From contig JAQOWU010000004.1 in the NCBI GenBank assembly GCA_030867685.1, forward strand, positions 1 through 64,000: 64,000 nucleotides of DNA, in the 5' to 3' direction. This stretch comes from Wickerhamiella versatilis (taxonomy: Eukaryota). The first letter of the stretch is position 1, and each line of letters begins with the position of its first letter. Made by a program: the position numbers and the translations under genes. This document shows, piece by piece, positions 1,312 through 63,738 of the stretch. The notes below the pieces were generated by a model. That model was not told where the DNA came from. It made no database searches and saw nothing but the letters and a program-made list of their open reading frames with translations.

Positions 1312-1332
1312 GGGCTATCTTGCATTGTCCAA
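1312..1332 (+). repeat. 41-bp dispersed repeat fragment
   Basis: GGGCTATCTTGCATTGTCCAA, exact match to the consensus unit. Confidence 0.9.
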
Positions 1333-1356
1333 ACCGCTGTATAGCGAGTAGTCGCT

Positions 1357-1396
1357 GATATCTTGCTTTATCTGGCCAGTCTTAGGTAGTGAAGTG
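1357..1396 (+). repeat. 41-bp dispersed repeat, degenerate near-full unit
   Basis: GATATCTTGCTTTATCTGGCCAGTCTTAGGTAGTGAAGTG. Confidence 0.75.
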
Positions 1397-1967
1397 CGCT
1401 AATTCGCGACGCTAACCTTTCTGACAAATCCTTTTCGACTTGTAATAGAAATTGGGATAAGTTCAGGACCCATGCTCTTTAATTGGCATAAGGGGGGACT
1501 CTAAAAATTCCATATTGTCCTAGACACACTTTACTTTACATTAAGTTCGAACGACTTTTCGTTTCTCTAGAAACCAGCTCTTATCAATGTGTGTGGCCAC
1601 ATTTGACTCATATTATTCACCTTGCTCTTCTGATAATATAACGCTATAACACTAAGGTCCCACAGAAGTACTTTAATTTCAATTAAACGCAGATTTATGT
1701 TCGAAACAAGCTTTTCGCAAGCTTATCACCTCCATCTACCTAAGATAAATTGAATATGCTTAGTCATAATAAGTCAGGGTTATTACTCCCTTTGCAGCTT
1801 GTTAAAATGAGTCTCTTACTTACGACGGTCATCTGACTTTTTTCGATAAATCCGTAATCCTCCAAGATGCTCTCGAAATCTCCGATGATATTTTGAAACT
1901 CGCTCACTAATTTTTCCCCGAAGTACTCAGGCTCGCTTCTTGCCGTGGCGTGCAAAATACTGGGATT

Positions 1968-3083: not shown

Positions 3084-3678
3084 AGTTATTCCTGTACCGA
3101 AACCTTCCCTGTTACGCGAAAGTGTGATTATATAAATTGAAATGAGACTGGGTCGACACAGCAAGACAGCATAGGTACGATGAGACCCGCAGGGAGCCAG
3201 GTGTGAAATTAGAGGTCTGAATAAGAAGAAATAAAACTTATTGGTTCTAGCTGACTTTACAGTATTATATCGTAATTCAAGTGCGCTTTGAAAAGATCCA
3301 ATGATGGAAAATGTCATTTATTCTCTCAACGCTACAATTACTAATACGTTCTACATATGCAGGGTCGCAGGGTAGCCCACCACTTGAGTCTCATCGGAGC
3401 GCCATCCTCCTGTAAAGACTACTTAATGTCAATTTTTTGCATGGTACATTTGATGTTTAGAAAAGATCTAGTGGTACCCTGCTCATATTTATTCTAAGGG
3501 GATGCTCATATCATATGACGAAGCCATTCTCTATCGGATCATAAGTACACGGGGTTTAGCTGGTAGCAAATACCTTTAGTATTGACCACAAATCTCGAGT
3601 ATTTGCTAGAACACCATTACATATCTCTAGCGAAAATGACATTATTTAAGTCACTCTCCAACCGAAAATGGAGGATAA

Positions 3679-3718
3679 CAGGTGCCAAGAAATTATTTTT
3701 TCAGGTGCCAAGAAATTA
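3679..3718 (+). promoter_or_regulatory. Two 17-bp direct repeats CAGGTGCCAAGAAATTA, each containing a PacC/Rim101-type site (TGCCAAGAA)
   Basis: Copies at 3679-3695 and 3702-3718, between two divergent GT25 genes. Confidence 0.5.
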
Positions 3719-3865
3719 CGTCAGCGGTGCAGTTTTCATGTGTATGAATAATCTGGCCTAGCTAATCGTACTGCTTATTTCGACAATAACCAAGCTGTCC
3801 ATGTGCCATTTCGGTCAATCTGTGCTGTGGTTCTATACTAGTAATTATCAAACCTGTAAACAGCA

Positions 3866-3897
3866 CACTTCGCTACCTGACTGTTTGGACAATACAA
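3866..3897 (-). repeat. 41-bp dispersed repeat fragment (degenerate)
   Basis: CACTTCGCTACCTGACTGTTTGGACAATACAA versus consensus CACTTCACTACCTGAGACTGGTTGGACAATGCAA. Confidence 0.7.
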
Positions 3898-4201
3898 AAC
3901 AGTGGGCCATCTTGGTGGAACATGTTACGTAATATCATACGATATGGAAATAGCAATAACCCCTGCCTCCATATCATAGTGATGACAGTAGAGATCTGGA
4001 GAAGGAGATAAAATGTTAGAATGAACCCATGCCTATCATCCCATTTCCTACGAGATGAGGTTTTTTACTTATAGTGAGAGAACTGGTCTTCAATACAATA
4101 ATATTCACTAGACTTGAGTACCTTTTCAATGCATAAAAGAGTCCATTGATTACCAAGGCAGCTGTGGGACTTGGTTTACGCGTGATAGTTCTCCTTGGAA
4201 T

Positions 4202-5275
4202 ATGAAGAAAGCATCTTTTGGTAAAAGGATGGCCACTCGAGCGGTGATTCTAGTATCCTACATTTTATTGGTTATATTAGCCATTTGGCCCGATAGCAGG
4301 TATCCTAAAGTGTTGTTCAATGCTGCAGGTAATAGTTCGCGGGGCTTCGAAAAAATAATTTTTGTAAATCATCCTTATCGCAAGGATAATGCCAATATAA
4401 TGTCACTCGAAAGTCACTACTCCGGCATAGAGTACTTGACATCCAAAGAAGCAGACTACTATGAGTCTAAGTCCGACAAAAACGATCTTCCATCTGTAGA
4501 TGTAGCTTGCGCGTTATCACATATGAATGTCTGGAAACTAGTTCTGGAAAAAGGCTGGGCGTCAGTCCTCATCCTGGAGTCTGATGTAACTTGGGATGAG
4601 AACATCAAGAACATATCCAAACGAGCTGCAAAGGGTCTAGATACGCTGATAAATGAGAAGCGACTTAGACAAGGTGGAAGTCAGCCATCTCCGCAAGATC
4701 CATATAATGTAGAGCAGTGGGACTATTTCTCATGGGGGACCTGTTTCGACGAAGAGCGATTTGAGGCCAGTGCATCCGGCATTTACGTGAAATACCCTGA
4801 TGTCGACTCCCCAAATTGTGAATACGGCTGGCCAGAGGATGATGTGAACGATACGCTTGTAGACGAACGCATAATGAGGAAGGCTGGCTTTCCAATCTGT
4901 ACTAATGCCTATGCTTTGACTGCCAAAGGAGCCGAGAAGCTACTCCTTCGGAAGTCGCTGTTTTCAAATGGCTCTGTAGATTTAAAAATGGCTCAGGAAA
5001 TCGATAAAGGAAATTTAGTGGGTTATGAGATGTTTCCACCACCAATGTATCAGTGGCGCTATGTTGGTGATACCGGGGCAGATGGACTAAACCCTGACAT
5101 AGCTTCGGAAGAGAGGCAAGAAGAAAATATCAGTAATATTGAAGAGAAATGGAGCCAATCCCAAGACCCTAGCTTTTTCTGGGAAATTAACCATCGTAAC
5201 TACCCATGGCCGTATAAGCATTGGGTATTGAACAGGATAGCTGAAAATATGGTGTCAAAGAACACCTCTTCTTAA
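4202..5275 (+). CDS. Glycosyltransferase family 25-like (paralog 2)
   Basis: N-terminal TM; GFEKIIFVNHPYRKD, ACALSHMNVW, LILESDV, CTNAYALTAKGAEKLL; collinear with the other two GT25 ORFs. Confidence 0.8.
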   Translation: MKKASFGKRMATRAVILVSYILLVILAIWPDSRYPKVLFNAAGNSSRGFEKIIFVNHPYRKDNANIMSLESHYSGIEYLTSKEADYYESKSDKNDLPSVDVACALSHMNVWKLVLEKGWASVLILESDVTWDENIKNISKRAAKGLDTLINEKRLRQGGSQPSPQDPYNVEQWDYFSWGTCFDEERFEASASGIYVKYPDVDSPNCEYGWPEDDVNDTLVDERIMRKAGFPICTNAYALTAKGAEKLLLRKSLFSNGSVDLKMAQEIDKGNLVGYEMFPPPMYQWRYVGDTGADGLNPDIASEERQEENISNIEEKWSQSQDPSFFWEINHRNYPWPYKHWVLNRIAENMVSKNTSS

Positions 5276-25222: not shown

Positions 25223-26848
25223 ATGTCCGACACGTGCGAAAGAGATTATACATGTGCGGAGCCGGAGTTAGGAAGAGGAGCGGAGGAAAAAGTCACCACG
25301 AATGTGACGAATTCTAAAATAGATACACTCCACTTAGTTCAACATGCGGAAAATGCTGATCAAGCAATGAAATATGCACATAACAGTCATGAGTTCGACC
25401 AGGTTGGCAGGGACATAGAACGGAAATTAAAGCGAAAAACTGACTTGTTTGTGATGCCTCTGCTTATTATTATATATGCATTACAGTTTGCAGATAAGGT
25501 ATCAAACGGAGGAGCTTCAGTAATGGGCCTGCGCTCGGATCTAAACATGAAGGGAAACATGTATTCATGGGTTGGGGTAAGTTTTTATCTCGGCGAGATT
25601 GTGGGACTCATCTTTGTTTGGTCTCTTATCCAGAAATTCCCAGCTGCAAAGTTAACAGCAACCATGATTACTGCGTGGGGAGTAATCATGGCCTGCTCTG
25701 CTGCCAGCCAAAATTACGCCGGATATATCGCATGCCGCGTTTTACTTGGAATGGTAGAGGGAGTTGTGACGCCAGCCTTCTCTTTAATCACAACACAGTG
25801 GTATCGTCGAGATGCTGGTGAACAGTTTTCACGCACAAACTTTTGGTTTGGAGCCAATGGTATCGGCTTAATTATTGGCACATCCCTGGCTTATGGTTTC
25901 TACATACGCGATTCGTCTACCATAGCCGGATGGCGTGGTCTTTTCATCTGTCTTGGCTGCATGACAATTGTTTTTGGGATCGTGTTTTTTGTTCATATCC
26001 CCGATGACCCTTTAAAAGCGTGGTTTCTAACTGACGATGAAAAAATGTGGCAAGTTGAACGTATCCGTCGCAACAATAAGGGATTTGGTAGCCATCATAT
26101 TAAATCATATCAAATCAGAGAATGTCTCAAAGATTTACGTTGGTATCTGTATATGGCAATAATGTTTTTGGGCTGTATACCTATCGGAGGACTGACCAAC
26201 TTTGGCACTATCATCCTTGGGGGTATCATTAAGGGAAATGCTGTACCAGTAATAGAAGGGGACCCCAGAATGAACGATATTTCAGCTCGTTCCCTACTCA
26301 TGCAGTTGCCACAGGGCGGTACATCGTTTGTTGGGTGTGTACTGGTTGGTGTGGCCTCTTCATATATTCTTAAAAATTACAGAACACTTTACGGAGTATT
26401 TATCGGCATGATCAATATATTAGCGTTCTGTTTTCTTGCATGGGGATTCAATTCGGGTAGCAGGCTTTTTGGTCTCTACACTTGTGTATGGAGTAGTACT
26501 GCTTTGCTTATCGTAAATCTCTCGTGTATTCAATCAAATATGGGAGGGACAACAAAGACTCTAGTGGCAACAGCTAGCTGCATGCAGTTTTACTGCTGTG
26601 GTAACGCTCTAGGTTCAAGCGACGCTCTTTTTAAGCCGTCCGAAGAACCAGATTATCATACAGCCAAGGTAACCATGGCAGCATGTGCTTGCATTCAGAC
26701 ATTCCTCATAGCAAGTCTTTATGTAGTGTACCTGGTTGAAAACAAATTGCGTGACCGAAAAAATGAAAAACTTCCACCAGGCATTGATCATCCTGAATTT
26801 GCTGATCTCACAGACATGGAAAACCCCGAATTCAGATACGTTTATTAG
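25223..26848 (+). CDS. Allantoate/ureidosuccinate permease-like MFS (Dal5 family)
   Basis: LQFADK, LGMVEGVVTPAFSLITTQWYRR, PDDPLKAWFLT, C-terminal EFADLTDMENPEFRYVY. Confidence 0.85.
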   Translation: MSDTCERDYTCAEPELGRGAEEKVTTNVTNSKIDTLHLVQHAENADQAMKYAHNSHEFDQVGRDIERKLKRKTDLFVMPLLIIIYALQFADKVSNGGASVMGLRSDLNMKGNMYSWVGVSFYLGEIVGLIFVWSLIQKFPAAKLTATMITAWGVIMACSAASQNYAGYIACRVLLGMVEGVVTPAFSLITTQWYRRDAGEQFSRTNFWFGANGIGLIIGTSLAYGFYIRDSSTIAGWRGLFICLGCMTIVFGIVFFVHIPDDPLKAWFLTDDEKMWQVERIRRNNKGFGSHHIKSYQIRECLKDLRWYLYMAIMFLGCIPIGGLTNFGTIILGGIIKGNAVPVIEGDPRMNDISARSLLMQLPQGGTSFVGCVLVGVASSYILKNYRTLYGVFIGMINILAFCFLAWGFNSGSRLFGLYTCVWSSTALLIVNLSCIQSNMGGTTKTLVATASCMQFYCCGNALGSSDALFKPSEEPDYHTAKVTMAACACIQTFLIASLYVVYLVENKLRDRKNEKLPPGIDHPEFADLTDMENPEFRYVY

Positions 26849-27152
26849 ATTAGATTTCGTTGGCTCTAGCATATAACCATTGACATATTACTCAACATGT
26901 TAGATAGAGGTAAATTTTGCAAAGATAGCCCACTTTTAGCTTTATATATTCCGCTTATATCAAAAAGCTTGGAAATTTTGTGGGGTCATTTCATCGTGTG
27001 TGCGGATTAGTAATGTTAAGTTCATGTTAAGTCTGGTCGGCAGTTATCTATGTATATCCCTTAGCCCATAGCAATCGTTAGCCCATGTCCTGTATAGCAT
27101 TACACTGCTCGAGAAATAAAGTTATAAGGTCATAAGTTAGAGATTGATGAAT

Positions 27153-28446: not shown

Positions 28447-28472
28447 GTGGGCTATCTTGCATTGTCCACCAG
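28447..28472 (+). repeat. 41-bp repeat fragment capping the left end of a duplicated segment
   Basis: GTGGGCTATCTTGCATTGTCCACCAG. Confidence 0.95.
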
Positions 28473-28794
28473 ATATTGATCATCCTGAATTTCCACAGAC
28501 ATGGAAAACCCCGAATTCAGATACGGCTATTAGATAAGATTTCGTTGGCTCTAGCACATAATCATTGAGATGTTACTCAACATGTTAGACAGAGGTGAAA
28601 TTTGCAAATGTTTAGCTTTCTATATCTCGCTTACATCACAATGCTTGGAAATTTTGTAGGGTCATTTCATCGTGTGAGCGGATAAGTAATGTTGAGTTCG
28701 TTAAGTCTGGTCGGCAGTTATCTATGCATATCCCTTAACCCATATCAATCGTTAGCCCATGTCCTGTATAACATTACATTGCTTGAGCAACAAA
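28465..28794 (+). repeat. Diverged direct copy of 26773-27120 (3' end and 3' flank of the Dal5-like gene)
   Basis: Shared blocks ATTGATCATCCTGAATTT, CACAGACATGGAAAACCCCGAATTCAGATACG, GTTAAGTCTGGTCGGCAGTTATCTATG, AATCGTTAGCCCATGTCCTGTATA. Confidence 0.95.
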
Positions 28795-28851
28795 TGCAAC
28801 ATAGCCCACTTCACTAACTGAGACTGCTTGGACATTGCAAGATAGTCCACT
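28793..28851 (-). repeat. 41-bp repeat, ~1.4 tandem units capping the right end of the duplicated segment
   Basis: AATGCAACATAGCCCACTTCACTAACTGAGACTGCTTGGACATTGCAAGATAGTCCACT. Confidence 0.95.
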
Positions 28852-34172: not shown

Positions 34173-34215
34173 CTTCACTACCTGAGACTGGTTGGACAGT
34201 GCAAGTCACTTCACT
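34173..34215 (-). repeat. 41-bp repeat unit with an internal deletion
   Basis: CTTCACTACCTGAGACTGGTTGGACAGTGCAAG-TCACTTCACT. Confidence 0.92.
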
Positions 34216-34417
34216 GGCTAATATAAAGTGATTCAGAAACAGTTTAATTAAATATTTGATACCTAAATGGCCCACAGTCTGCTCAGGTCCTAGAGCTTAA
34301 ATATGTCACCGTTATGAGTGTGCTTGTTAAAACAAGGTCCATCCGATAATGACTAATTGAACTGGATTTAATATGGGAGTAATGAGTCCATCCAAAGCCA
34401 ATGGGTAGGAGCACTGA

Positions 34418-34459
34418 AGCCCACTTCACTACCTGAGGCTGGTTGGAAAATGTAAGATA
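34418..34459 (-). repeat. 41-bp repeat, full unit in a different permutation
   Basis: AGCCCACTTCACTACCTGAGGCTGGTTGGAAAATGTAAGATA. Confidence 0.92.
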
Positions 34460-34850: not shown

Positions 34851-35951
34851 ATGCCAAGATATGTCCTTCGCACATTGGTCTTAACCTGGGCTATAGCTCT
34901 CACATTGCTAGCATTACTCGCTGGAAATTCATTTTATCAAAATAAAGATTATGAGGGCTACAAGGGCCTTGGAATGCCCACCAGGCCGAGAAGTGCATCT
35001 AGCCAATTTGCATCAACCACAAATGACACAATGGGATTTTCTGAGATAGCCTTTATCCGGTTACCTCATAGATATGATCAAGAAGATGTAATGACTTTTC
35101 AGGGCATATTAGCAAAGCTTAAGTATAAGTCCTATGATGCTGTTGACAGTCAAGATGTCGAAAAAGACTATCGCGGTCTACCCCCGGCCAGGTCTCAAGA
35201 TCTAAGTTCATCGGAGCTGGCATGTATTAGATCACATGCTAATGTATGGCAAAAAATGCTACAAAATAATTATTTATCAGTTCTCGTCCTAGAAGGTGAT
35301 GCGACTTTCGATGTCGATATACGCGATCAAACGTTCCGACTGGCAAGGGCCTTTCAAGATCTTCTGTCCTCCCTGAATTTGATAGTAAATAATACGGATG
35401 AGGATCCTTGGAATTGCGAAAGCTGGGATATCTTGAATTTTGGGGCTTGTTTCGAAGGCGGGGAATTTTCGAATCTCTATAGGACATATGATGATCCTGG
35501 CACTCCATCTATATTATATGACTATCCAGAGACCAATACCGCCTTTGAGACTAAAGAAGGAGAAAGGATAGTTCGGCGGAGTGGGCGACCAATATGCACG
35601 ACAGGCTATGGGATTAGCCGTCGCGGCGCACTCAAGATGCTCCTAAGGATGTCACTGGAAAGTTCACGGGCTTTAGATCTCGTAATGGCCCAGGAAAACC
35701 TCAAAGGCACTGTTGAGTCTTACACAGTATGGCCCCCATTAATACATCAATGGGAATATAAGGATGGAGTCAATACTCAGAGCTCTGACATTCATAATGT
35801 TGACAAGAATGAAGATTATGATCCAAATATATGGAAAGATGTATTTCTGCAAGCGAATGTCTGGCAAGTGAGAAAAGAATATCAACAGTGGCACATGAAC
35901 AACTGGACACTAGCTCAAATAGGACGAGAATCGGGATTAGCATTCGTCTGA
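34851..35951 (+). CDS. Glycosyltransferase family 25-like (paralog 3)
   Basis: N-terminal TM; NDTMGFSEIAFIRLPHRYD, ACIRSHANVW, LVLEGDA, CTTGYGISRRGALKML. Confidence 0.82.
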   Translation: MPRYVLRTLVLTWAIALTLLALLAGNSFYQNKDYEGYKGLGMPTRPRSASSQFASTTNDTMGFSEIAFIRLPHRYDQEDVMTFQGILAKLKYKSYDAVDSQDVEKDYRGLPPARSQDLSSSELACIRSHANVWQKMLQNNYLSVLVLEGDATFDVDIRDQTFRLARAFQDLLSSLNLIVNNTDEDPWNCESWDILNFGACFEGGEFSNLYRTYDDPGTPSILYDYPETNTAFETKEGERIVRRSGRPICTTGYGISRRGALKMLLRMSLESSRALDLVMAQENLKGTVESYTVWPPLIHQWEYKDGVNTQSSDIHNVDKNEDYDPNIWKDVFLQANVWQVRKEYQQWHMNNWTLAQIGRESGLAFV

Positions 35952-36303: not shown

Positions 36304-39300
36304 CTAGTGGAGCAGAACTATCGCAAGAGCTATAGCCGTGAACATACCCTTAACCGGTTCCAGTGAATGTCCAGAATTTGCTACCTCAGGAACTGAATTC
36401 GAGGGCTGGGCAACACTAGGAGCATTATTCGATTCAATGGCTTGTGAAGCCGATGCGGGTCCACTAGATGATGAGGCCGCTGAGCCTGAAGGCTGAGCAA
36501 CACTAGGAACATTATTTGATTCAATGGCTTGTGAAGCCGATGCGGGTCCACTAGATGATGAGGCCGCTGAGCCTGAAGGCTGAGCAACACTAGGAACATT
36601 ATTCGATTCAATGGCTTGTGAAGCCAAAGCTGGTCCAATGGTTAATGTTGGGACCGCTGAGCCAGAAGGCTGATTGCTTAGAGCTTCGGCTACACTACCA
36701 GTCTGAGTACAGTCGCAATCCTCTAGGGTGAGGGTGGTAGCTTGCGTAACCGTGTACGTTGTACCGCCATATGCAAACGTAGTAGGACTGGGACAAGGGA
36801 TAGTGGTATACTTGGTACTCTCAGCTGTTACAGTAGTGCCTTCAAATACATTAGGGGTCTCTACAGTGACCTCGGGAACGGTGTAAGTCCTACCACCACT
36901 GGTGATCACCTCATTGGTGCTGATAGTAGTAGGAGCCGTACCAGTGTAGCCAATGGTAGTGGTCACACCCGGAATACCATTGGTGGGGGTCTCGACGGTG
37001 ACATCTGGAACAGGGTAGATCTTGCTACCGCTAGTCATCACCTCATTTGTGCTGATGGTGGTGGGCGCTGTGCCAGTGTAGCCAATGTTGGTGGTCTCGC
37101 CTGGGAAGTTCCCAAGAGGGGTATATGTCATGGATAACGATACATTTTCACTGCGTGAGATGCTGCTACTTCTGATAACTGGTGGGACATTCTGACTAGA
37201 CTTCATAGTCGGAGTCTCGACGGTGACATCTGGAACGGTGTAGATCTTGCTACCGCTAGTGATCACCTCATTTGTGCTGATAGTGGTGGGCACAGACCCA
37301 GTGTAGCCAATGGTGGTAGTCTTACCCGGAATACCATTGGTGGGGGTCTCGACGGTGACATCTGGAACAGTGTAGATTTTACTACCACTATTGATCCCCT
37401 CATTTGTACTGATAGTGGTGGGCACAGAACCAGTGTAGCCAATGGTGGTAGTCTTACCCGGAATACCATTGGTGGGGGTCTCGACGGTGACATCTGGAAC
37501 AGTGTAGATCTTGCTACCGCTAGTGATCACCTCATTTGTGCTGATAGTAGTGGGAGTGGTGCCAGTGTAGCCAATGGAGGTAGTCTCACCTGGAATACCA
37601 TTGGTAGGGGTTTCGACAGTGACATCTGGAACAGTGTAGATCTTGCTACCGCTAGTAACCACCTCATTTGTGCTGATAGTAGTAGGAGTGGTGCCAGTGT
37701 AGCCAATGGAGGTAGTCTCACCTGGAATGCTATTGGTGGGGGTCTCGACGGTGACATCTGGAACAGTGTAGATCTTGCTACCGCTAGTGTTCACCTCATT
37801 TGTGCTGAGAGTAGTAGGATAACTACCTGTCCATGCAACCGTAGTGGTCTCACCTGGAATACCATTGGTAGGGGTCTCGACGGTGACATCTGGAACAGTG
37901 TAGATCTTGCTACCGCTAGTGATCACCTCATTTGTGCTGATAGTGGTGGGCACAGAACCAGTGTAGCCAATGGTGGTAGTCTTACCCGGAATACCATTGG
38001 TGGGGGTCTCGACGGTGACATCTGGAACAGTGTAGATCTTGCTACCGCTAGTGATCACCTCATTTGTGCTGAGAGTAGTAGGATAACTACCTGTCCATGC
38101 AACCGTAGTGGTCTCACCTGGAATACCATTGGTAGGGGTCTCGACGGTGACATCTGGAACAGTGTAGATCTTGCTACCGCTAGTGATCACCTCATTTGTG
38201 CTGATAGTAGTGGGAGTGGTGCCAGTGTAGCCAATGGAGGTAGTCTCACCGGGAATACCATTGGTAGGGGTTTCGACAGTGACATCTGGAACAGTGTAGA
38301 TCTTGCTACCGCTAGTGATCACTTCATTTGTGCTGATAGTGGTGGGCACAGACCCAGTGTAGCCAATGGTGGTAGTCTTACCCGGAATACCATTGGTGGG
38401 GGTCTCGACGGTGACATCTGGAACAGTGAAGATCTTGCTACCGCTAGTGATCACGTCATTTGTGCTGAGAGTAGTAGGATAACTACCTGTCCATACAACC
38501 GTAGTGGTCTCACCTGGAATACCATTGGTGGGGGTCTCGACGGTGACATCTGGAACAGTGTAGATCTTGCTACCGCTAGTGATCACCTCATTTGTGCTGA
38601 TAGTGGTGGGCACAGAACCAGTGTAGCCAATGGTGGTAGTCTTACCCGGAATACCATTGGTGGGGGTCTCGACGGTGACATCTGGAACAGTGAAGATCTT
38701 GCTACCGCTAGTGATCACGTCATTTGTGCTGAGAGTAGTAGGATAACTACCTGTCCATACAACCGTAGTGGTCTCACCTGGAATACCATTGGTAGGGGTC
38801 TCGACGGTGACATCTGGAACAGTGTAGATCTTGCTACCGCTAGTGATCACCTCATTTGTGCTGATAGTGGTGGGCACAGAACCAGTGTAGCCAACGGTGG
38901 TAGTCTTACCCGGAACACCATTGGTGGGGGTCTCGACGGTGACATCTGGAACAGTGTAGATCTTGCTACCGCTAGTGATCACTTCATTTGTGCTGATAGT
39001 AGTAGGATAACTACCTGTCCATGCAACCGTAGTGGTCTCACCCGGAACACTATTGGTGGGGGTCTCGACGGTGACATCTGGAACAGTGTAGATCTTGCTA
39101 CCGCTAGTGATCACGTCATTTGTGCTGAGAGTAGTAGGATAACTACCTGTCCATGCAACCGTAGTGGTCTCACCTGGAATACCATTGGTAGGGGTTTCGA
39201 TGGTGACATCTGGAACAGTGTAGATCTTGCTACCGCTAGTAACCACCTCATTTGTGCTGATAGTAGTGGGAGTGGTGCCAGTGTAGCCAATGGAGGTAGT

Positions 39301-40515
39301 CTCACCGGGAATACCATTGGTGGGGGTTTCGACAGTGACATCTGGAACAGTGTAGATCTTGCTACCGCTAGTGTTCACCTCATTTGTGCTGATAGTGGTG
39401 GGCACAGAACCAGTGTAGCCAATGGTGGTAGTCTTACCCGGAATAACATTGGTGGGGGTCTCGACGGTGACATCTGGAACAGTGTAGATCTTGCTACCGC
39501 TAGTGATCACCTCATTTGTGCTGATAGTAGTAGGAGTGGTGCCAGTGTAGCCAATGGAGGTAGTCTCACCTGGAATACCACTGGTGGGGGTCTCGACAGT
39601 CACATCTGGGACAGTAAAGGTCCGATCATATGTGGTTTTCAACTCATTCTTACTGAGGGTGGTAGGAAATGTTCCCGTCCACGCAACCGTAGTCGTTTCA
39701 CCTCCTGCCGTTGGAGTTTCAATAATTTCAACTGGTGTCGTTGAACTACCCTGTGGGACTTCTGTAACAAACGTAGTAGTAAATGTTCCCTGCCATGGCA
39801 ACGTACTCGTTTTAACTGGACATTCTTGCTTACTCCAATCGATCTGATATAAATTCTCGAGTGGGCTATATGAGTCACTTCCAGGCTTCATCACCGAGAT
39901 ATTGAGACGCGATTGCGTTAAGCGGTTCACATAAACTAACTCCATCGGATACACAAGATTACTATCCAGTTCAACAGAAAGTCTCGCACCATCTAAGGTG
40001 GCAAACAAATCAAACTTGTTGCCTACATTCTGGCTCACATTTTCACAGCATGCACGAGCACCTCCTAGTCGCAAGCCCGCGTCATCGTCAGCTTCCAGGT
40101 AAAACGTGTAAATACCTGAGGTTGGAGGTATATAGTAAGCCGTCATATTCATAGTAAAGTTGGTTATGGTGATATCGTTTCCAAACACATTACTATAGGC
40201 GGTATACCACCATTGTTGCAAGCTATTGTTATAGTAGTTCCAATACAACGAATTCCCTTCGATACCAGTCGCTGAAATCTGGTTGCCTTGATCATCATTA
40301 TAAGGGCCAAAATGTCCGAAGTCTGCAGTAATCTTACGAAGGTCGTTGTCGTAAAGTTCAACACCAACCTCCCATTTCCAATAGTCAACATTGAATCCGC
40401 GTGACCCTAACTCAAGGGGTCTGGTGCATCCATTCACGGACACGCTGCTGGAACTCTCAGCCAACACAGACGGGATGGTCTGAAGTAGCAATACAATACG
40501 ACTTAAGGGGCCCAT
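36304..40515 (-). CDS. Flocculin/adhesin: signal peptide, PA14/GLEYA-type lectin domain, Thr-rich repeat stalk, GPI signal
   Basis: TAYYIPPTSGIYTFYLEADDDA (DD Ca2+ motif), VYPMELVYVN; 44-aa repeats ending TVPDVTVETPT; hydrophobic C-terminus. Confidence 0.92.
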   Translation of the reverse strand: MGPLSRIVLLLQTIPSVLAESSSSVSVNGCTRPLELGSRGFNVDYWKWEVGVELYDNDLRKITADFGHFGPYNDDQGNQISATGIEGNSLYWNYYNNSLQQWWYTAYSNVFGNDITITNFTMNMTAYYIPPTSGIYTFYLEADDDAGLRLGGARACCENVSQNVGNKFDLFATLDGARLSVELDSNLVYPMELVYVNRLTQSRLNISVMKPGSDSYSPLENLYQIDWSKQECPVKTSTLPWQGTFTTTFVTEVPQGSSTTPVEIIETPTAGGETTTVAWTGTFPTTLSKNELKTTYDRTFTVPDVTVETPTSGIPGETTSIGYTGTTPTTISTNEVITSGSKIYTVPDVTVETPTNVIPGKTTTIGYTGSVPTTISTNEVNTSGSKIYTVPDVTVETPTNGIPGETTSIGYTGTTPTTISTNEVVTSGSKIYTVPDVTIETPTNGIPGETTTVAWTGSYPTTLSTNDVITSGSKIYTVPDVTVETPTNSVPGETTTVAWTGSYPTTISTNEVITSGSKIYTVPDVTVETPTNGVPGKTTTVGYTGSVPTTISTNEVITSGSKIYTVPDVTVETPTNGIPGETTTVVWTGSYPTTLSTNDVITSGSKIFTVPDVTVETPTNGIPGKTTTIGYTGSVPTTISTNEVITSGSKIYTVPDVTVETPTNGIPGETTTVVWTGSYPTTLSTNDVITSGSKIFTVPDVTVETPTNGIPGKTTTIGYTGSVPTTISTNEVITSGSKIYTVPDVTVETPTNGIPGETTSIGYTGTTPTTISTNEVITSGSKIYTVPDVTVETPTNGIPGETTTVAWTGSYPTTLSTNEVITSGSKIYTVPDVTVETPTNGIPGKTTTIGYTGSVPTTISTNEVITSGSKIYTVPDVTVETPTNGIPGETTTVAWTGSYPTTLSTNEVNTSGSKIYTVPDVTVETPTNSIPGETTSIGYTGTTPTTISTNEVVTSGSKIYTVPDVTVETPTNGIPGETTSIGYTGTTPTTISTNEVITSGSKIYTVPDVTVETPTNGIPGKTTTIGYTGSVPTTISTNEGINSGSKIYTVPDVTVETPTNGIPGKTTTIGYTGSVPTTISTNEVITSGSKIYTVPDVTVETPTMKSSQNVPPVIRSSSISRSENVSLSMTYTPLGNFPGETTNIGYTGTAPTTISTNEVMTSGSKIYPVPDVTVETPTNGIPGVTTTIGYTGTAPTTISTNEVITSGGRTYTVPEVTVETPNVFEGTTVTAESTKYTTIPCPSPTTFAYGGTTYTVTQATTLTLEDCDCTQTGSVAEALSNQPSGSAVPTLTIGPALASQAIESNNVPSVAQPSGSAASSSSGPASASQAIESNNVPSVAQPSGSAASSSSGPASASQAIESNNAPSVAQPSNSVPEVANSGHSLEPVKGMFTAIALAIVLLH
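36404..36625 (-). repeat. 87-bp (29-aa) coding repeat, ~2.5 copies
   Basis: SQAIESNNVPSVAQPSGSAASSSSGPASA. Confidence 0.85.
37207..39700 (-). repeat. 132-bp coding minisatellite, ~19 tandem units (2 more at ~36850-37110)
   Basis: The GTCTCGACGGTGACATCTGGAAC-type marker recurs every 132 nt from ~37213 to ~39589. Confidence 0.95.
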
Positions 40516-42764: not shown

Positions 42765-43428
42765 TCACCGTTTAATGTCCGCATATGAGTCTGTATGCAT
42801 GTATTTAAGGCACTGTTTTGTATTCTTGAGCAAAAGGTGTAGGCCTATGGACGATTTTCGAGATGAATGCATAGATGTCTTGACAGGTCTGATCTATTGC
42901 TAAACGTCCGTTGGAATATTTCACAATGACCAAGAGCGTCGAGAGCAATTCTTGATATTAAAAGGTATTCTTCTAAACCTAATCTCTCGTTATAGGGAAG
43001 TAAAGAATGGTTTGGTATATTCCTCACAATGCTTGCTTTCTGGGTCTTTTTGCCTTTTTATGAGCTACTTTTGAGGAAGCCGCGGAAGTGACGTAGAATC
43101 TCCCTTCCTTCTGAAAAACACCTTGCATAGCTGAAAAATTAGGATGGCTTGGATGTCCGACAGTTGCTGATTGTCTTTCGTCATAAAGTTCACTTCTACT
43201 TTCACTGCATTTTCCATTTAGATTAAGAGGAATTTTGAAAATGCAGTTGCAAACCTCGTTCAACGCATCCCTTGAAGATCTCTGTGAGACATCTTGACGA
43301 TTAAATCCATTTACAGTACTGAAAGATCCATATGTGAGTTCTTGGATCTTAGAAGTCTCAGAACCTATAAATGGTCTGGAAGTGGGTGCGTGACCTGTCA
43401 GGATCCAGAGCTTCAAAAAATAAGTCAT
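42765..43428 (-). pseudogene. Decayed C2H2 zinc-finger gene, inverted paralog of 47732-48319
   Basis: YNERLGLEEYLLISR..HCEIFQRTFSNRSDLSRHLCIHLENRP* matches YNEKLSLKEQLLISR..HCEICQKKFRYKTDLSRHLCIHLDIRPY; upstream VNGFNR matches VHGFSR; stops and frameshifts present. Confidence 0.8.
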
Positions 43429-45658: not shown

Positions 45659-45761
45659 CGAAATATGTTTGTTTGTTTGTTCTTGCTTCTTGCGGTGGTA
45701 TATAGGTATAAGCGAATTAATTACTAACAACTAACTTCTGATACTTATAACATTTATATGG

Positions 45762-46525
45762 TAGCAAGATCGATGCTGTCTCTGATGTCAACCTCGAAAT
45801 TCCTAGTTGTCCATGTATTATCATGCCTCTTCTGTTAATGAAACTACAACTATCGATGGACTGGAACTGGCATTACTACTCTAAGCACTAATGACGCTTT
45901 TATTAGTGGTACCGAGATGTACTGTTCGCGAATTTACAACTAAGACCCTCTCTGAATTGGAGAGTGGCATTTTAACGACTGAATTCACAAAGTTAACCAC
46001 TATTCCTTCCCCCACTCCTACCACATTTGCGTATGGCAGTGCACTTATACCGTGACTTGGGCTACTACCCTCACTATAGAGGAAGATTGCAGTTGTACGC
46101 AGACTACTTCTAATACTCAAGTCACCTCTGAGCGGTATTCTGATTCACCATTTGCTACACTTACTGGTTATCCCTCGGCCACGCAGGCCCTTGAATCGAC
46201 TGCCAGTAGTGAAACTGGGAATATGAGTTACCAGAATGCTATCTTATCATGTGCTATGCTCATTGGCGTTTCGTCATCTCAGACTATTGAATCGTCTGAT
46301 GGTCATGACGTTAGGGTAACATCTGAATAGTATGCTTGCTCACTATTTACTACAATAAGTAGGTATTTCTTAGCTTCGCAAGTAGCTGAATCGACTGTTT
46401 TTCCAGGTATGGTTGAGCATCCGTCAAGCTCAGTTCCTGAGGTAGCAAATGCGTGATCGACTCTCAAACCCATCAATGGTTTCTTTACGGACATTGCTGT
46501 TGCGAGTATTTTAAATACTTTATGG
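45762..46525 (+). pseudogene. Decayed C-terminal part of an adhesin paralog
   Basis: TTIPSPTPTTFAYG and VTWATTLTIEEDCSCTQT match TTIPCPSPTTFAYG and VTQATTLTLEDCDCTQT; SSVPEVANA*STLKPINGFF matches NSVPEVANSGHSLEPVKGMF; one eroded 44-aa repeat upstream. Confidence 0.8.
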
Positions 46526-47731
46526 CGTTTTTGTATTTGTATGCAGATTAATAGCATACATCCATTAACTTCTGCATAGATAGGTTGAAATAACGTTGTA
46601 TGTATGTTTAACATATTCTGCAGATGGATCCCAGCTAATATTTTCTGGATTAAGCCCCTCTTGGAAGAAAATCGGGAAAGAATATCTTAATTTGAAGTAC
46701 AAGCATATGCACTGATTCTTTATATTTATGTTCTAATTTCCAAGGAAAAGCGTACGCGACTCGACAGGGTCGATATATTCTCTAAGACCACGCTGGCATA
46801 CCTAATTGCTGGTCGCAGGCATACAGCTATACACTACTTTTTTACAAATACTGCTGGAAATTTAAAAAATCTCTCTCCTTGCCACAGTTTTAACAGTTTG
46901 AAGTGAATGCCTGCCGAAAAAAAAATATTAGTCACTTTGGAGTCTAGAACAGGCCTAGACATCCCTCTGGAGACAGTTCTCTCTCATCTTGACTATACCT
47001 TTTCCGATTGCTTTTATTTTTGACTAGAAATAATTCTATTCATGGATGTGGCTCTACTTGCTTTTCTACTACCACTGAAGAGGCCATTGATAACAAACGT
47101 AACCGTCATTTTGGGCTTTCTAAGATGGGTTTTATCCAGTGTGTCTATAGACATGAAATAGAATTCGTAGCTTCTTTTGGCTCTTTATTACTATCCAACA
47201 ACAAATTTACTGATCTATATGGTTGGGCAAAATATGGATGCACAGATCTTGACGCCTTCCAACCATACTCACATTGTGCGATTGGTTGGGGAATAAGAGA
47301 TTTGTTTTCTTAAAGACAAAGCGAGAAGTGGTTCCAAGTTTTCAAAAAATTACACATTATTCGCCACTTCCCGATATTTCGACCTGCATCAATCTCAGAC
47401 AAAACTGCGACGAAAAGTTGCTACGCATCTGTAAAGTAATGCATTGTAGTGCAGTTTGCAGTATGTTACCACCTCACCCTGGCATGCGGATGTCAGCATG
47501 AAAAAATGCTATTTTTAACAGCGATGTAGAAATATGTAAAAACTTAGTGGATTAAGGATGTAAAAGAATACATTAAACTGACTGACATCTCAAATGGCTT
47601 AGCAGCGAACAGTGTCCTATCCACAGGAGCTCACATGTAAGTTTAATAAATGATTACTGGTCCGTTTGAGCTGTGCCCACCTTCCAGACAATTAATGTGA
47701 TCTTATGCTTACCAGTATATGATCAGAGGAT

Positions 47732-48319
47732 ATGGACCTTTCATTGATCGTGCATGGATTTAGTCGTCGAAAGTTTTCACTGAAGTCTTTTGGCGAAGTG
47801 ACGGAGCAAGGGCGTGGGACGACCCTTAAGGCACAATCACTTAATGCGAGCGCAAGTCATAATTTAATGGTTGAACACGAAAATAAGAGCAGCAAAATGT
47901 ATCTTGAAAGACAGTCTTCCTCAGTTGAGCGGTTTCCATATTCTAACACATCATCCCTGCAAAGTTTTGTTTTAGATGGTAGCATGGCCCTGTGTCGCTT
48001 GCACAATTCCCATAAAAACTATTCTGAAAATAGAATAAGGTGCGAAGACCATGGTGTTAAAAAGGGAACATCATCCTTCGCCTCCCTGGCCTATAACGAG
48101 AAATTAAGCCTAAAAGAACAACTCCTGATATCACGAGTTGGATTTAACGGTCTCTATCATTGCGAAATATGCCAGAAAAAATTTAGATACAAGACTGATC
48201 TCTCAAGGCATCTGTGTATTCATCTTGATATTCGTCCATATGCCTGTCCAATTCGTTCAAGAAGGTTTATACAGAAGAAGTCTTTAAATGTGCACGTAAA
48301 AACACACACGCGGAGGTAG
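47732..48319 (+). CDS. C2H2 zinc-finger protein; second finger degenerate
   Basis: YHCEICQKKF..L.RHLCIH, linker LDIRPY, then CPIRSRRF..L..HVKTH, which lacks the second Cys. Confidence 0.6.
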   Translation: MDLSLIVHGFSRRKFSLKSFGEVTEQGRGTTLKAQSLNASASHNLMVEHENKSSKMYLERQSSSVERFPYSNTSSLQSFVLDGSMALCRLHNSHKNYSENRIRCEDHGVKKGTSSFASLAYNEKLSLKEQLLISRVGFNGLYHCEICQKKFRYKTDLSRHLCIHLDIRPYACPIRSRRFIQKKSLNVHVKTHTRR

Positions 48320-49617: not shown

Positions 49618-49975
49618 TATTGTAGTGCAGTTTGCAGGTATGTATCACCTCATCCTGGCATGCAGATGTCAGCATGAAAAAATGCTATTTTTAACGGCGA
49701 TGTAAAAATATGCAAGAACCCAGTGTATTAAGGAACAAAAACAAATTAAACTTATTGAAGTCTCAAATGGCTTAGCAACGATCGGTATCCACGGGAGCTC
49801 ACATGTAAGTTTAATAAATGATGACTGATCCGTTTGAGCTGTGCCCACCTTCCAGACAATTTATGTGATCTTCGTGGGCTATCTTACCAGTATATGTCAG
49901 ATGATATATACTTTCATTAATCGTGCATGGATTTAATCGTCAAGAGCTGTCACTGAAATCTTTTTTGGCGAAGTG
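49618..49975 (+). repeat. Diverged direct copy of ~47443-47800 (upstream region and 5' end of the zinc-finger gene)
   Basis: Shared ATTGTAGTGCAGTTTGCAG, GATGTCAGCATGAAAAAATGCTATTTTTAAC, GGAGCTCACATGTAAGTTTAATAAATGA, TCCGTTTGAGCTGTGCCCACCTTCCAGACAAT. Confidence 0.93.
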
Positions 49976-50110: not shown

Positions 50111-50130
50111 CTGGCTGGACAATGCAAGAT
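50111..50130 (-). repeat. 41-bp repeat fragment
   Basis: CTGGCTGGACAATGCAAGAT. Confidence 0.85.
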
Positions 50131-50630
50131 CACATAATTACAGGATAGCCGGGCTTAGGTATAAAGGGTTGAACGCATTTTGTTGAGGAAGTGACATTAT
50201 GAAGATAGCCTCCTCATATAAGATTAAATTTCAGTAATCCTGAATCTGCTGGACTGTGCAACGTAGCTTGATCTATCAGTCTCGATTTGGGTATATATAT
50301 AAATGGTTCGAATTCTACTCGTGCTGGTATATGTATGGCGTGGATACTTATGTACTTATGACTTATAGATTCTTGTTGGTGACTAATCGATGTACGCGAG
50401 TTACTGGTTCCGCAGTACACGATAGTTTTTCTAGTACGAAATAGACATAAGTTTGGTTATGTGTTTAGTGGTATGAATAAAGAAAAGAGAACCTATATTT
50501 TGCTGCGGTTCTGTGAATGTTGCTAAAATTATGTACGCTATTTTAGCATTATAAATGGGGACTTGTCATCTGAGTCATATGAAGATTAGCCATGCAACTG
50601 TCAACTTCAATTGTGATATTTTTTTCCATT

Positions 50631-50663
50631 CCTGTGACTGGCTGGACAATGCAAGATAGCCCA
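50631..50663 (-). repeat. 41-bp repeat fragment
   Basis: CCTGTGACTGGCTGGACAATGCAAGATAGCCCA. Confidence 0.93.
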
Positions 50664-55767: not shown

Positions 55768-57462
55768 CTACATCTGGGCACCAAGCATCCAGGGGACCAT
55801 TTCTTCTTTGCCCACATCGAGAGCTTCACTCTTGCTAGGCTCGCCAGAAGCCAGAGTGATAAACCGACGGAAAATCTCCTCGCCCTTCCTAGCAACAGTA
55901 GTTTCACCGTCAATGATGTGACCACAGTTGATGTCCATATCATCCACCATGCGATTATACATAGGCGTGTTAGTGGCAAGCTTGATGGTAGGAGCAACTC
56001 TTGAACCGAAACAAGACCCACGTCCAGTTGTGAAGGCAAGAAGTGTGGCACCACAGGCAATTTGTCCTGTAGCACCCATGGGATCATACCCAGGTCCATC
56101 CATGTACAGCAAACCCTTTGTGTCAAGGGGCTCTGCGTACCTATAGACTCCCTGTAGTGGGGTAGATCCACTTTTCGCAACGGCTCCCAGTGACTTTTCT
56201 AAAATCGTGGTGATACCGCCCTTCTTGTTTCCAGGTGTCGGGTTGTTGTCGATACTGCCGTTTTCGCGTGCAGCATAACCTTCCCAGTCATGGATGATAT
56301 CGACAATCTTCTCTCCAATTTCCTTGGTTACCGCACGGCTCGTGAGCATCATCTCGGCACCGTAAATTTCTGGTGTCTCGGTAAGAATAGCTGACCCGCC
56401 CTGGGCAACCAGAAGGTCGACTGCTTTACCCAATGCCGGATTAGCAGTGAGAAGAGAATATCCATCTGATCCACCACATTGCAAAGCCACTGTTAGGTGC
56501 GAAAGTGGTAATGGCTGTCTTTCGGTCTTATTGACCTCGGGCAAAAGACCCTCAATAACCTTGATAGCTGCATCAGCAGTCTTCATCGTTCCGCCCTTTT
56601 CCTGCATAACCAATGGAACCAAGCGGGAACCTGGCTTTACATGCTCAGTCATAAAAATGGCATCCATCTGATTTGCCTCGCAACCGAGACCAATGACAAT
56701 AACCGCCGCGAAGTTCGGATGGACGATGTAGCCACCGATGGTACGGCGCAACTGTTTGATACCCTCACCGTTCCAGTCAATACAGCAGCCAAATCCATGA
56801 GTGATGGGTAAAACACCATCGATATTGGGAAACTGTTTCAGGATGTCCGACTTGGCAAAATGGTCAGCCACCTTACGAACAGTGGTTGCCGAGCAATTGA
56901 CAGTACTGATCACGCCAATTAAGTTGCGTGTCGCTCCGCGTCCATCTGGACGCAAATGACCATTGAAAGTCAGCTCCTCTTTTGGCTTCTCAACTGGTCT
57001 CACTTTGCTACAGAAAGCATAGTCACGCTTGAAAGTGTGTCCCATGGCGAGGTTATGAACATGCACGTAGTCACCCGGAGCAATGTCTTTGGTCGCAAAA
57101 CCAATGATCTCGCCACATTTGTGAACAGGTTCACCCTTCCTGATACTATGAATAGCAATTTTGTGACCATTGGGAACATCAGTATCAACTGTTATTTTCT
57201 CAGGTAAATCAAGTACAGTACCGTTGGGCAAATCCTCGCGAGCCACTACTATATTATCATGGTCGTTGAGTAAAACAAACTCATCGCTTGTGCCCTTATT
57301 CCAGGTTCTCTTAGAGTTAGAATCACTAGGCCTCAGCGGAGTCGTGTGGAATTGCTTCGCTACACCAGGGTAAATAGAAGAGCGTTTGAAGGCCAACTGC
57401 TGGGGACGAGCAGAACGAAGAGCAGCTAAAATAAGTTTGATATTGATTCTGAAAAGGGGCAT
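55768..57462 (-). CDS. UxaA/GarD-family (altronate/galactarate) dehydratase with predicted mitochondrial presequence
   Basis: SAF domain (DNIVVA..GHKIA..GDYVHVHNL), TRNLIGVISTVNCSAT, HGFGC, LQCGGSDG, NPTPGNKKGGITTILEKSLGA, FTTGRG. Confidence 0.88.
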   Translation of the reverse strand: MPLFRINIKLILAALRSARPQQLAFKRSSIYPGVAKQFHTTPLRPSDSNSKRTWNKGTSDEFVLLNDHDNIVVAREDLPNGTVLDLPEKITVDTDVPNGHKIAIHSIRKGEPVHKCGEIIGFATKDIAPGDYVHVHNLAMGHTFKRDYAFCSKVRPVEKPKEELTFNGHLRPDGRGATRNLIGVISTVNCSATTVRKVADHFAKSDILKQFPNIDGVLPITHGFGCCIDWNGEGIKQLRRTIGGYIVHPNFAAVIVIGLGCEANQMDAIFMTEHVKPGSRLVPLVMQEKGGTMKTADAAIKVIEGLLPEVNKTERQPLPLSHLTVALQCGGSDGYSLLTANPALGKAVDLLVAQGGSAILTETPEIYGAEMMLTSRAVTKEIGEKIVDIIHDWEGYAARENGSIDNNPTPGNKKGGITTILEKSLGAVAKSGSTPLQGVYRYAEPLDTKGLLYMDGPGYDPMGATGQIACGATLLAFTTGRGSCFGSRVAPTIKLATNTPMYNRMVDDMDINCGHIIDGETTVARKGEEIFRRFITLASGEPSKSEALDVGKEEMVPWMLGAQM

Positions 57463-57829
57463 GATTGTAACACCAGCTAGGTCTCGTGTCTCACCAATGT
57501 GTGATATCCCGTATCGGGGCTAGGGTAAGAGATCCAGCTTAACTGATTTCTGCAGTTGTTGCCCCGCCGTTTATGTAAGGGGGCTGCATTTGACCCAATA
57601 AATTATTTCGTGGAACATACACAGAGTGGTTAAATGGGTAAGTATTCAAACTATTTATTTGACCTTTTCTCATCATGTTCGATTGAGTGCGTCACATCGA
57701 ACGAAGTTGACTCGCCGGATGATCTGCAATGCAATGACTCAGCTTATTCCCGTGTTTGTCGTTTTCTGTTGGTCAATTTGCTGAAAACCTCGTTTCGTAA
57801 GACTTTTTATCCTACTGATAGTAATTGAA

Positions 57830-59287
57830 ATGTATTTCAGCCTAGGCGCCGCAATATGGATGGGGATTAAGCCACTGGTTAAGATATATGGGACAATTGG
57901 TGCAGGATATCTTGCTGCGCATAAGGGGGTTCTTACACCACAGTCAGAGAAAACCATCTCTTGGATGGTTTTATATTTCTTTATACCGGCACTTATTTTC
58001 TACAATATTGTGTCCTACATCACGGACACCGATATCGAAATGCTAGGTGTCATTTTCCTTTCTGGAGCAATATATTATGCGCTCGGCCTTCTCTACGGAA
58101 TAGTGCTGTACTTGATTTCTCCTATCCCACGTGGATGGATTGGGGGATTATTACTCTGTGCCATGGTGAATAACTCATCTGACTTACCGGTTGCTTATGT
58201 TCAAACCATTGGAAGCTCGACTTTGATGCCTGAGGGATCTAGCAACTTAGGTAGCGCCTATGCAGTCCTATTTAGCACCATTTTCTACATCACCACATTC
58301 AATCTTGGTGGGAGTAGGCTTGTTGAATGGGATTTCACGCGATCTGATCCATACAGAAATGAGGGTACAAAGCCATTGCTAACGTGGAAAGGGTGTAAGC
58401 AACTCTGGAAGGAGCGTGTATCAAAGAAATCCAGCACGGAAGATAATCCAAATCACGACGACCAGGATGAGCATCAGCCAGATGACAGCGAAATAGGGAT
58501 CTTGCCGTTACACCACAGAGAATCTGCGGTGAACACACCTGGAGGGGCCAATATTGCTAAAACTTCACCAGGTGGTACAGGTAAGAACACCAATAGTGCT
58601 GAGAGCGAAGAACCGAAGCCAGAACCCCAGGTGCCTAAAACAGCTTGGCAGAAGTTTAGACAGATATGGAATAATTTTGAGAAAAAAAACCATGTAACGA
58701 TGTTCATTTGCCACTTCATTGAAGATATTAAAAGACCGCAGATGCTCGCGTTGATTTCCGCTATTGCTTGTGCCATGATTCCCTGGGTAAAGAGATGTTT
58801 TTCAAATGAACAGATTATTGGTGGTTTCAGGGACCCACCCGATGGATTGCCACCACTGGATTTCATCATGGTATTTCTCAGCTTTCTAGCAGGAGCTCAA
58901 ATTCCCCTCGGTTTAATTATGGTCGGATCCAACATTAAGCGTCTCAAACTTGGGAGGCTTGTTCCTGGGTTCAAGCGCACAGCATTTCTATTAGCGGCCT
59001 TCAAACTAGCAATCCTACCTATCATTGCCTGTGGCTGGATCGTGGCACTGCGCCAAATGGGATGGATTGACAAAAATGACCCACTAGCTGCCGTGGTTTT
59101 GGCAGTGGATGCCTCAACACCTTCTGCTACAGTGCAAATTTACTTGACAGAGTTGCTTGATGATCCCAATGGTGAGCGACCAGAACTAAATGCTTTTGGC
59201 TATTGCCTGATCATTCAGTATCTTTTTTTGCCAATATCAATAGTAATAGTGGTTGCGTTTGTGCTGAAACATTTTTCTGCTGCTTAA
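57830..59287 (+). CDS. Auxin-efflux-carrier (AEC) family membrane protein, Ecm3/YNL095C-like
   Basis: IKPLVKIY, NSSDLPVAYVQT, acidic central loop, FKLAILPII, PSATVQIYLT. Confidence 0.8.
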   Translation: MYFSLGAAIWMGIKPLVKIYGTIGAGYLAAHKGVLTPQSEKTISWMVLYFFIPALIFYNIVSYITDTDIEMLGVIFLSGAIYYALGLLYGIVLYLISPIPRGWIGGLLLCAMVNNSSDLPVAYVQTIGSSTLMPEGSSNLGSAYAVLFSTIFYITTFNLGGSRLVEWDFTRSDPYRNEGTKPLLTWKGCKQLWKERVSKKSSTEDNPNHDDQDEHQPDDSEIGILPLHHRESAVNTPGGANIAKTSPGGTGKNTNSAESEEPKPEPQVPKTAWQKFRQIWNNFEKKNHVTMFICHFIEDIKRPQMLALISAIACAMIPWVKRCFSNEQIIGGFRDPPDGLPPLDFIMVFLSFLAGAQIPLGLIMVGSNIKRLKLGRLVPGFKRTAFLLAAFKLAILPIIACGWIVALRQMGWIDKNDPLAAVVLAVDASTPSATVQIYLTELLDDPNGERPELNAFGYCLIIQYLFLPISIVIVVAFVLKHFSAA

Positions 59288-63563: not shown

Positions 63564-63607
63564 ATCTTGCATTGTCCAACCAGTCTCGGGTAGTGAAGTG
63601 GACCATC
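63564..63607 (+). repeat. 41-bp repeat, full unit
   Basis: ATCTTGCATTGTCCAACCAGTCTCGGGTAGTGAAGTGGACCATC. Confidence 0.95.
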
Positions 63608-63714: not shown

Positions 63715-63738
63715 TGGACAATGCAAGATAGCCCACTT
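63715..63738 (-). repeat. 41-bp repeat fragment
   Basis: TGGACAATGCAAGATAGCCCACTT, exact match to consensus. Confidence 0.93.

Follow-up and report, generated by a model that had tools for sequence, protein, structure and literature searches.

A nine-nucleotide telomeric patch in a duplicated promoter of Wickerhamiella versatilis, probably written by telomerase as an interstitial insertion shorter than one unit

The short interstitial telomeric sequences (s-ITS) of primates, rodents, and equids are, in the available portions of three papers, one-step gains at empty sites, and the action of telomerase during end joining has been proposed as their origin (PMC2246262, PMC8537989, PMC6410037). 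The accessible part of PMC8537989 also reports no telomerase-type insertion among more than 35,000 induced junctions, and insertion by telomerase at repaired breaks has so far been argued from vertebrate genome comparisons. In Pyricularia, internalized telomeres and relics are enriched near chromosome ends and mark duplication boundaries captured during end repair (PMC8381367), and in S. cerevisiae telomerase heals horizontally acquired regions, the terminal telomere being seeded by donor repeats (PMC10412453). Telomeric units in the Saccharomycotina include those of Pichia norvegensis (43 nt), W. domercqiae (30 nt), and St. bombicola (20 nt) (PMC7857110), and for long homogeneous yeast units the template has been inferred to comprise the unit plus an annealing repeat of 1 to 10 nt (PMC7857110, PMC8211666). 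The locus described here shares with the long-repeat Saccharomycotina a long homogeneous unit, at 41 nt just under that of P. norvegensis, and would share with the S. cerevisiae healing events an action of telomerase on newly joined subtelomeric DNA; the product there is terminal, whereas here it would be an internal, rejoined linker. Judging from its sequence, the 9-nt patch that we refer to as site 2 is probably an interstitial telomeric insertion of less than one unit, written by telomerase.

Site 2 lies in the window, which is the first 64 kb of the 85,695-bp contig C4 of a 9.9-Mb assembly (G000; eight contigs, C1 to C8). It falls within a direct duplication in which positions 47443-47800 (copy A, plus strand) align with 49619-49975 (copy B, plus strand) with 308 of 368 columns identical, 35 mismatches, and 10 gap openings. 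Copy A holds the empty site, with an ATG at 47705-47707, and downstream of it is a C2H2 zinc-finger ORF of 195 amino acids (47732-48319, plus strand) that is a member of a small paralog family. Copy B, the filled copy, is a partial duplicate comprising the promoter and the first ~23 codons of the zinc-finger gene; its start ATG has been changed to ATA, there is in addition a 1-nt gap, and it has no ORF. The empty form at 47695-47721 reads ATGTGATCTT-ATG-CTTACC and the filled form at 49863-49896 reads ATGTGATCTT-CGTGGGCTAT-CTTACC. This difference had been noticed in a first-pass annotation, and both strings are indeed present in the window, inside the duplication, with the empty form starting at 47695 and not, as had been given, at 47694.

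Two nucleotides of copy A (47706-47707) are replaced in copy B by the 9 nt at 49874-49882, which on the minus strand are positions 33 to 41 of the 41-nt telomeric repeat unit. The adjoining host AAG (49883-49885, minus strand) is common to the empty copy and in register with the repeat, which agrees with the earlier suggestion that the patch was primed from it, and it is therefore regarded as the putative priming microhomology. Read on the minus strand, host ...GGTAAG runs on as ATAGCCCAC, which matches the unit exactly over 12 nt; at the empty site of copy A the match is at most 6 nt. A 12-nt match was reached by 16 of 200,000 random 10-nt fillers (analytic value, 1.0e-4), in line with the annotation's claim that the patch is templated; the chance becomes ~1e-3 once the 10 indels of the duplication are allowed for. 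At the opposite junction, base 49873 (plus strand) is C, where the empty copy and the repeat both have A, and this C is probably a later A-to-C substitution of a 1-nt joining microhomology. On the simplest reading of these sequences, TG would have been replaced by 9 repeat bases up to the stop point CCCACT, and the A-to-C change would have followed. The product strand of site 2, that is, the telomerase-product strand, is directed away from the C4 telomere; hence the telomere-side piece would have been the one extended, and such a piece could have persisted only by rejoining. The 9-nt site itself is neutral DNA in a dead duplicate. A separate 12-nt inverted match, AAGATCACATAA, is found in the flank of site 2 at 49861-49872 (minus strand) and at 50125-50136 (plus strand), the latter being where the next repeat fragment, 250 bp from site 2, ends; it may be due to chance or possibly to a second templated event.

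The 41-nt unit, which at C4:85254-85294 reads TTCACTACCTGAGACTGGTTGGACAATGCAAGATAGCCCAC, is the telomeric repeat of this yeast. A 22-mer of the motif occurs exactly 64 times in G000, compared with 0 occurrences of a reversed control. Tandem arrays of the unit terminate contigs C1 and C4, and the unit is also present in a noisy stretch formed by the first 1.9 kb of C7, and as a 12-unit array 3.1 kb into C8; no tandem array of the unit was found at the remaining contig ends. All four arrays have the same strand directed toward the end, and it is this combination of terminal tandem arrays and constant polarity that identifies the unit as telomeric and places the site 2 insert on the telomerase-made strand. 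Several structures near the contig ends were noted in passing. A 3.1-kb element is 99.9% identical at C8:91-3189 and C7:2636508-2639608, two contig ends, and lies beyond the 12-unit array on C8 and beyond a single 50-nt copy on C7; it represents either a Y'-like arrangement or an assembly join. The start of C4 (window positions 1-1500) overlaps the start of C3 in reverse at ~100% identity, and C4 probably represents the last 85 kb of the chromosome arm to which C3 belongs. Degenerate T-rich tandem repeats occupy the facing ends of C1 (1-2200) and C3 (1363000-1367225) and contain a 13-nt match to the telomeric unit.

An intact open TERT of 768 amino acids, with the PF12009 (RBD) and PF00078 (RT) domains, is encoded at C7 ~1,745,000. 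Two genes of the Ku70/80 family are present, as are two intact genes of the PIF1 family. PIF1 is a brake on telomerase; since its family is present, loss of this brake does not explain the density of the repeat fragments described below, and loss of Ku or PIF1 was rejected as the cause of that density, each family having two genes. Some repair genes have been reported missing from W/S-clade species, including XRS2 and NEJ1 in some strains, according to the available part of PMC12629084. Telomere tracts of W. versatilis of 410, 410, 329, and 206 bp (41n or 41n+1) and a fifth of 121 bp are listed, without a motif, in supplement 16 of PMC13376923. The motif is absent from those supplements of that paper that were searched, and its remaining files, including the main supplementary PDF, may print it. 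Nothing on the motif was found in PMC12449055 or PMC12983215, and in the parts available it is absent from the yeast telomere table of PMC7857110 and from the full-text literature matches. Among the literature matches listed, there was no account of the motif, nor of any yeast in which sub-unit telomerase inserts are dense.

Site 2 belongs to a large family of partial units. The window contains 34 exact unit matches of at least 10 nt, where 100 shuffled units averaged 3.9, and 249 non-array fragments were found in 790 kb of G000 (a sample taken mostly near contig ends and in part around known matches, with 2 of the 249 counted twice via the C3/C4 overlap), compared with 0 to 2 for 8 shuffled units. 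The nearest further fragments to site 2 are at 50116-50130 and 50643-50663 (both plus strand), and an outward-pointing pair is found at 63564-63601 (minus) and 63715-63738 (plus). Fragment density is ~2 to 5 per 10 kb in the end domains. Of 211 fragments, 146 are oriented toward the nearest end, and ORFs, which cover 56% of the sequence, contain 6 of 229.

The two ends of the fragments behave differently: 5' ends are spread around the unit circle, and 3' ends (n = 249) include 57 at unit position 1 and 23 at position 2, with 12 at positions 3 to 10. There is also a shoulder of 97 of the 249 whose 3' ends fall at positions 34 to 41, short of the boundary, which calls for an assumption of trimming, decay, or early release. 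The stop point of the family is ...GATAGCCCACT, that is, CCCACT, one base past the GCCCAC that had been proposed in the first-pass annotation as the common end point. For an unbiased test across the genome, every exact 15-mer whose end falls at position 1 was taken (90 in all), and the 31 in arrays or duplicated contig ends were set aside; of the other 59, 41 end exactly there, 14 have one further T (about the chance rate), and 4 run on, such that 55 of the 59 stop at CCCACT or one base later. Among the 12-mers that end at position 1 in 696 kb of unselected sequence, 4 of 48 run on for 3 more bases, compared with 62 to 95% at positions 8 to 39. Most fragments (242 of 249) are 50 nt or shorter, with 7 exceeding 50 nt, and the same 50-nt limits, from position 34 to position 1, are shared by two perfect copies that are unlinked. 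Together, the hard stop and the limits of these perfect copies imply a template of ~50 nt, which would consist of 41 nt plus ~9 nt of terminal redundancy. No shared flank follows the boundary across 84 fragments.

A gene for the telomerase RNA (TER) carrying such a template was not found among the 90 exact boundary 15-mers and 8 other matches that were inspected. Three non-array perfect matches are longer than 41 nt, one of which is polymorphic and two of which are subtelomeric with duplicated flanks, and none of the three stood up as TER: C8:309256-309305 was rejected, being absent from diverged strains, with low and uneven RNA depth over its spacer and an unremarkable fold (z score, 0.68), and C7:2634272 and C7:2636508 are unsupported, having short spacers and flanks that are duplicated elsewhere. 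When two flanks at RNA loose ends from run X24 were compared with G000, no match was convincing: one comparison gave 2 hits with 3 mismatches each, where the reversed control gave 1, and the other gave 0. In the same run, 158 RNA reads carry one unique flank, absent from G000, that is joined at unit position 39; this could reflect either a TER missing from the assembly or a strain-specific insert in a transcript.

Filled and empty forms can be compared at a few other sites. A screen of 374 sites for paralogs at both flanks yielded as clear pairs sites 1 and 2, C7:3329/C7:2501561, and a tandem pair on C8 that is more diverged than the rest. At site 1 (26924-26934, plus strand), 11 repeat bases ending in CCCACT stand in place of the TG of the paralog at 28609-28610. 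Site 2 had been presented as a second example of the same kind as site 1, and the shared polarity holds, with both ending at CCCACT; the shared end point had been placed at GCCCAC, which is one base short. Both sites have lost 2 nt, and in-register host bases occur on the variable 5' side in each case (AAG at site 2, AA at site 1, and TACCT at C7:3329 versus C7:2501561). Strain alleles are available for the perfect 50-nt copy at C8:309256-309305: a 15-kb contig of run X18 lacks it and skips 49 nt, a contig of run X20 skips 53 nt with 7 nt fitting either side, which corresponds to a target-site duplication in G000, one X24 read also skips the copy, and X11 contigs break at the repeat, as expected of the filled allele. 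The X18 and X20 alleles are unrooted and may instead reflect precise loss. At this locus, runs X18, X20, and X24 show several percent divergence from G000 and thus represent diverged lineages suited to polymorphism studies.

For site 2 itself, the direction of change was approached through paralogs. The first-pass annotation had pointed to the third paralog as a place to look for the motif; it is missing from that copy (paralog C, 43330-43400, minus strand) and from paralog D (C8 ~148,100; 52% protein identity to A). Paralog C has the spacing of copy A and is too diverged to orient the change firmly. The anchor-to-anchor spacing is 63 nt in A and C, 68 nt in B, and 72 nt in D, and MAFFT sets the extra 9 nt of D opposite the insert of B; pair-HMM posteriors were diffuse, and gap placement among the four copies is not fixed. 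An attempt to orient the indel by paralogs C to H failed, these being too diverged, and a metagenome scan for orthologs using the site flanks returned 2 hits, both unrelated. Judged by their sequences, the sites other than site 2 favor gain over loss. The zinc-finger family comprises about 8 related copies, mainly near chromosome ends, and the gene copy of paralog C is broken (42779-43428), with two stops in the matched stretch.

Repeat fragments are also concentrated at the joints of duplications. Within 696 kb, a fragment adjoins 23 of 308 duplication ends at a distance of up to 8 nt, compared with a null mean of 1.8 and a maximum of 7 in 500 trials, where fragments were masked and all null ends were set in non-coding DNA. 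Homology ends at the fragment in 23 of 23 joints, and the enrichment is therefore not an artifact of masking. The partner shares the repeat at 9 of these joints; at 8 the fragment points outward and the partner was scored as repeat-free, and at 6 it points inward. By eye, one of the 8 repeat-free partners looks degenerate, and 5 of the remaining 7 outward joints have 2 to 4 host bases in register. Two examples lie within the window. In the capped duplicate at 28447-28851, a 330-bp segment (28465-28794) copies 26773-27120 and carries an outward-pointing cap at each end (28447-28468, minus strand, and 28793-28851, plus strand, the latter with two rounds ending at the stop point), and the source has no repeat at either end. 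A 213-bp segment that is duplicated on C5 is bounded by repeat fragments (34173-34459, plus strand), of which 34173-34205 is shared with the partner and 34418-34459 is absent from it. Elsewhere, at ~C8:4485012-4485042, a head-to-head pair of fragments meets through GGT, which fits the extension of both ends of a break.

The repeat identity, the polarity, the hard stop, the in-register bases, the presence and absence of the insert at paired sites, and the TERT and Ku genes can be joined into a single scheme by supposing a break, an RNA template, and a joining pathway. A double-strand break would have occurred in the nonfunctional copy B. The minus-strand 3' end ...GGTAAG would then have paired, via the AAG that is seen in register, with the TER template near its last stretch, and copying would have proceeded to the 5' boundary of the putative RNA template, ...ATAGCCCACT, and halted there, at the hard stop that is observed genome-wide. 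Finally, the end would have been rejoined through a 1-nt T microhomology with the loss of 2 nt and filled in, possibly with the participation of the Ku70/80 proteins whose genes are present, and no new telomere would have formed. The same process could have given rise to the hundreds of fragments, which mostly correspond to one template pass or less and many of which are at rearrangement joints.

Several other origins of the patch were weighed. It could have been templated by DNA, through template switching onto a telomeric or interstitial repeat or through capture of a telomere-end oligonucleotide, and telomerase would then not have acted at the break. This route needs no TER, it too would be expected to show microhomology priming, captured terminal pieces would share a 3' end if chromosome ends finish at CCCACT, and 146 of 211 fragments do point toward the nearest end. 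However, a copy of an array of 5 to 12 units should end anywhere and would often exceed one unit, whereas a hard, one-base stop was observed and 7 of 249 fragments are longer than 50 nt, and the 41+9 limits shared by two unlinked copies are those expected of an RNA template; we therefore consider templating by DNA unlikely. A patch that is telomere derived but older than the duplication, and that was precisely deleted from copy A with nothing having been inserted into B, is quite improbable. Paralog D, being 9 nt longer than A here and alignable opposite the insert, could be cited for it, and a perfect 9-mer can outlast the 10% divergence between A and B; against this, C has the spacing of A, the D block beside the CTT anchor resembles C and is without the repeat motif, and the three bases that A has in place of the insert look host-like, with AGA preceding CTT in both C and D.

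Target-primed retro-insertions typically have one fixed and one variable end. The fragments share this property, and they could accordingly be 5'-truncated relics of a telomere-targeted or short retroelement of the MoTeR type; alternatively, they could be a selected protein-binding motif between genes, for which the 6 of 229 fragments inside ORFs, with ORFs covering 56% of the sequence, might be adduced. Both are highly improbable, given that the fragments consist of telomeric unit sequence alone with no common flank or tail, that the priming homology is at the variable end and not at the fixed end, that every permutation and length occurs, and that purifying selection by itself accounts for the avoidance of ORFs. 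There is, lastly, a negligible probability that an ordinary small indel resembles the unit by chance: the new bases number just 9, but P is ~1e-4 per indel, the patch is in register with AAG and ends at the boundary of the family, and site 1 is alike. An insertion written by telomerase into copy B thus remains the reading that we prefer.

A broader proposal, which we hold tentatively and regard as doubtful, is that telomerase in this yeast of the W/S clade serves routinely as an end-joining polymerase, adding up to about one template pass to the free 3' ends of broken chromosomes and loose fragments, whose tails are then joined. The end domains, which are long and rich in gene transfers, would have accreted from such tailed pieces, among them foreign genes, and an integration joint would be marked by every fragment. 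The 23 of 308 joints, the 8 outward fragments whose partner was scored as repeat-free, and the doubly capped 330-bp copy are cited in support. The route by which foreign genes are integrated in W/S-clade yeasts is described as unresolved in the available part of PMC13376923, and fragments at duplication joints offer a concrete, testable one. The idea of telomerase insertion at repaired breaks can also be tested directly here, since the yeast can be cultured, its unit is 41 nt long, and its inserts, hundreds in number, have a one-base stop from which the template boundary can be read without the RNA.

The window has other features of interest. A PA14/GLEYA adhesin-like ORF of 1403 amino acids (36304-40515) contains 132- and 87-nt repeats, and a relic copy of it may be represented by an inverted partial match at 45760-45805 and 46412-46505. 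Genes at 55768-59287, 1968-5275, and 34851-35951 encode a galactarate/altronate dehydratase, a membrane transport protein, and three GT25 glycosyltransferases; the dehydratase, transport, and GT25 families are common in bacteria, and these genes are candidates for horizontal acquisition.

When site 2 and its relatives are set against the known systems, as far as the available portions of those papers describe them, the internal telomeric motifs of Pyricularia are similar in being enriched near chromosome ends and in being associated with duplication boundaries. They differ in that the motifs there are former telomeres or MoTeR remnants at terminal captures, whereas site 2 is flanked on each side by colinear host DNA and is oriented away from the telomere, and some pieces here are doubly capped; no element-specific sequence of the MoTeR type lies beside the telomeric motif in the fragments examined. 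The difference from TERC-ITS lies in the flank copied from RNA outside the template, which is not seen after the boundary in the 84 fragments here. With s-ITS there is closer agreement, for both show empty homologous sites, in-register host bases at the break's 3' end, and small deletions or target-site duplications. The s-ITS, however, are arrays of several 6-nt units, and the inserts here are mostly less than one 41-nt unit (9 of 41 nt at site 2); one exact stop point that would read out the template boundary, a high density, and occurrence in a budding yeast are features of the present system. The sequence comparisons are thus consistent with a site 2 insert that would work like an s-ITS, minus the multi-unit feature, and for which dependence on telomerase is predicted.
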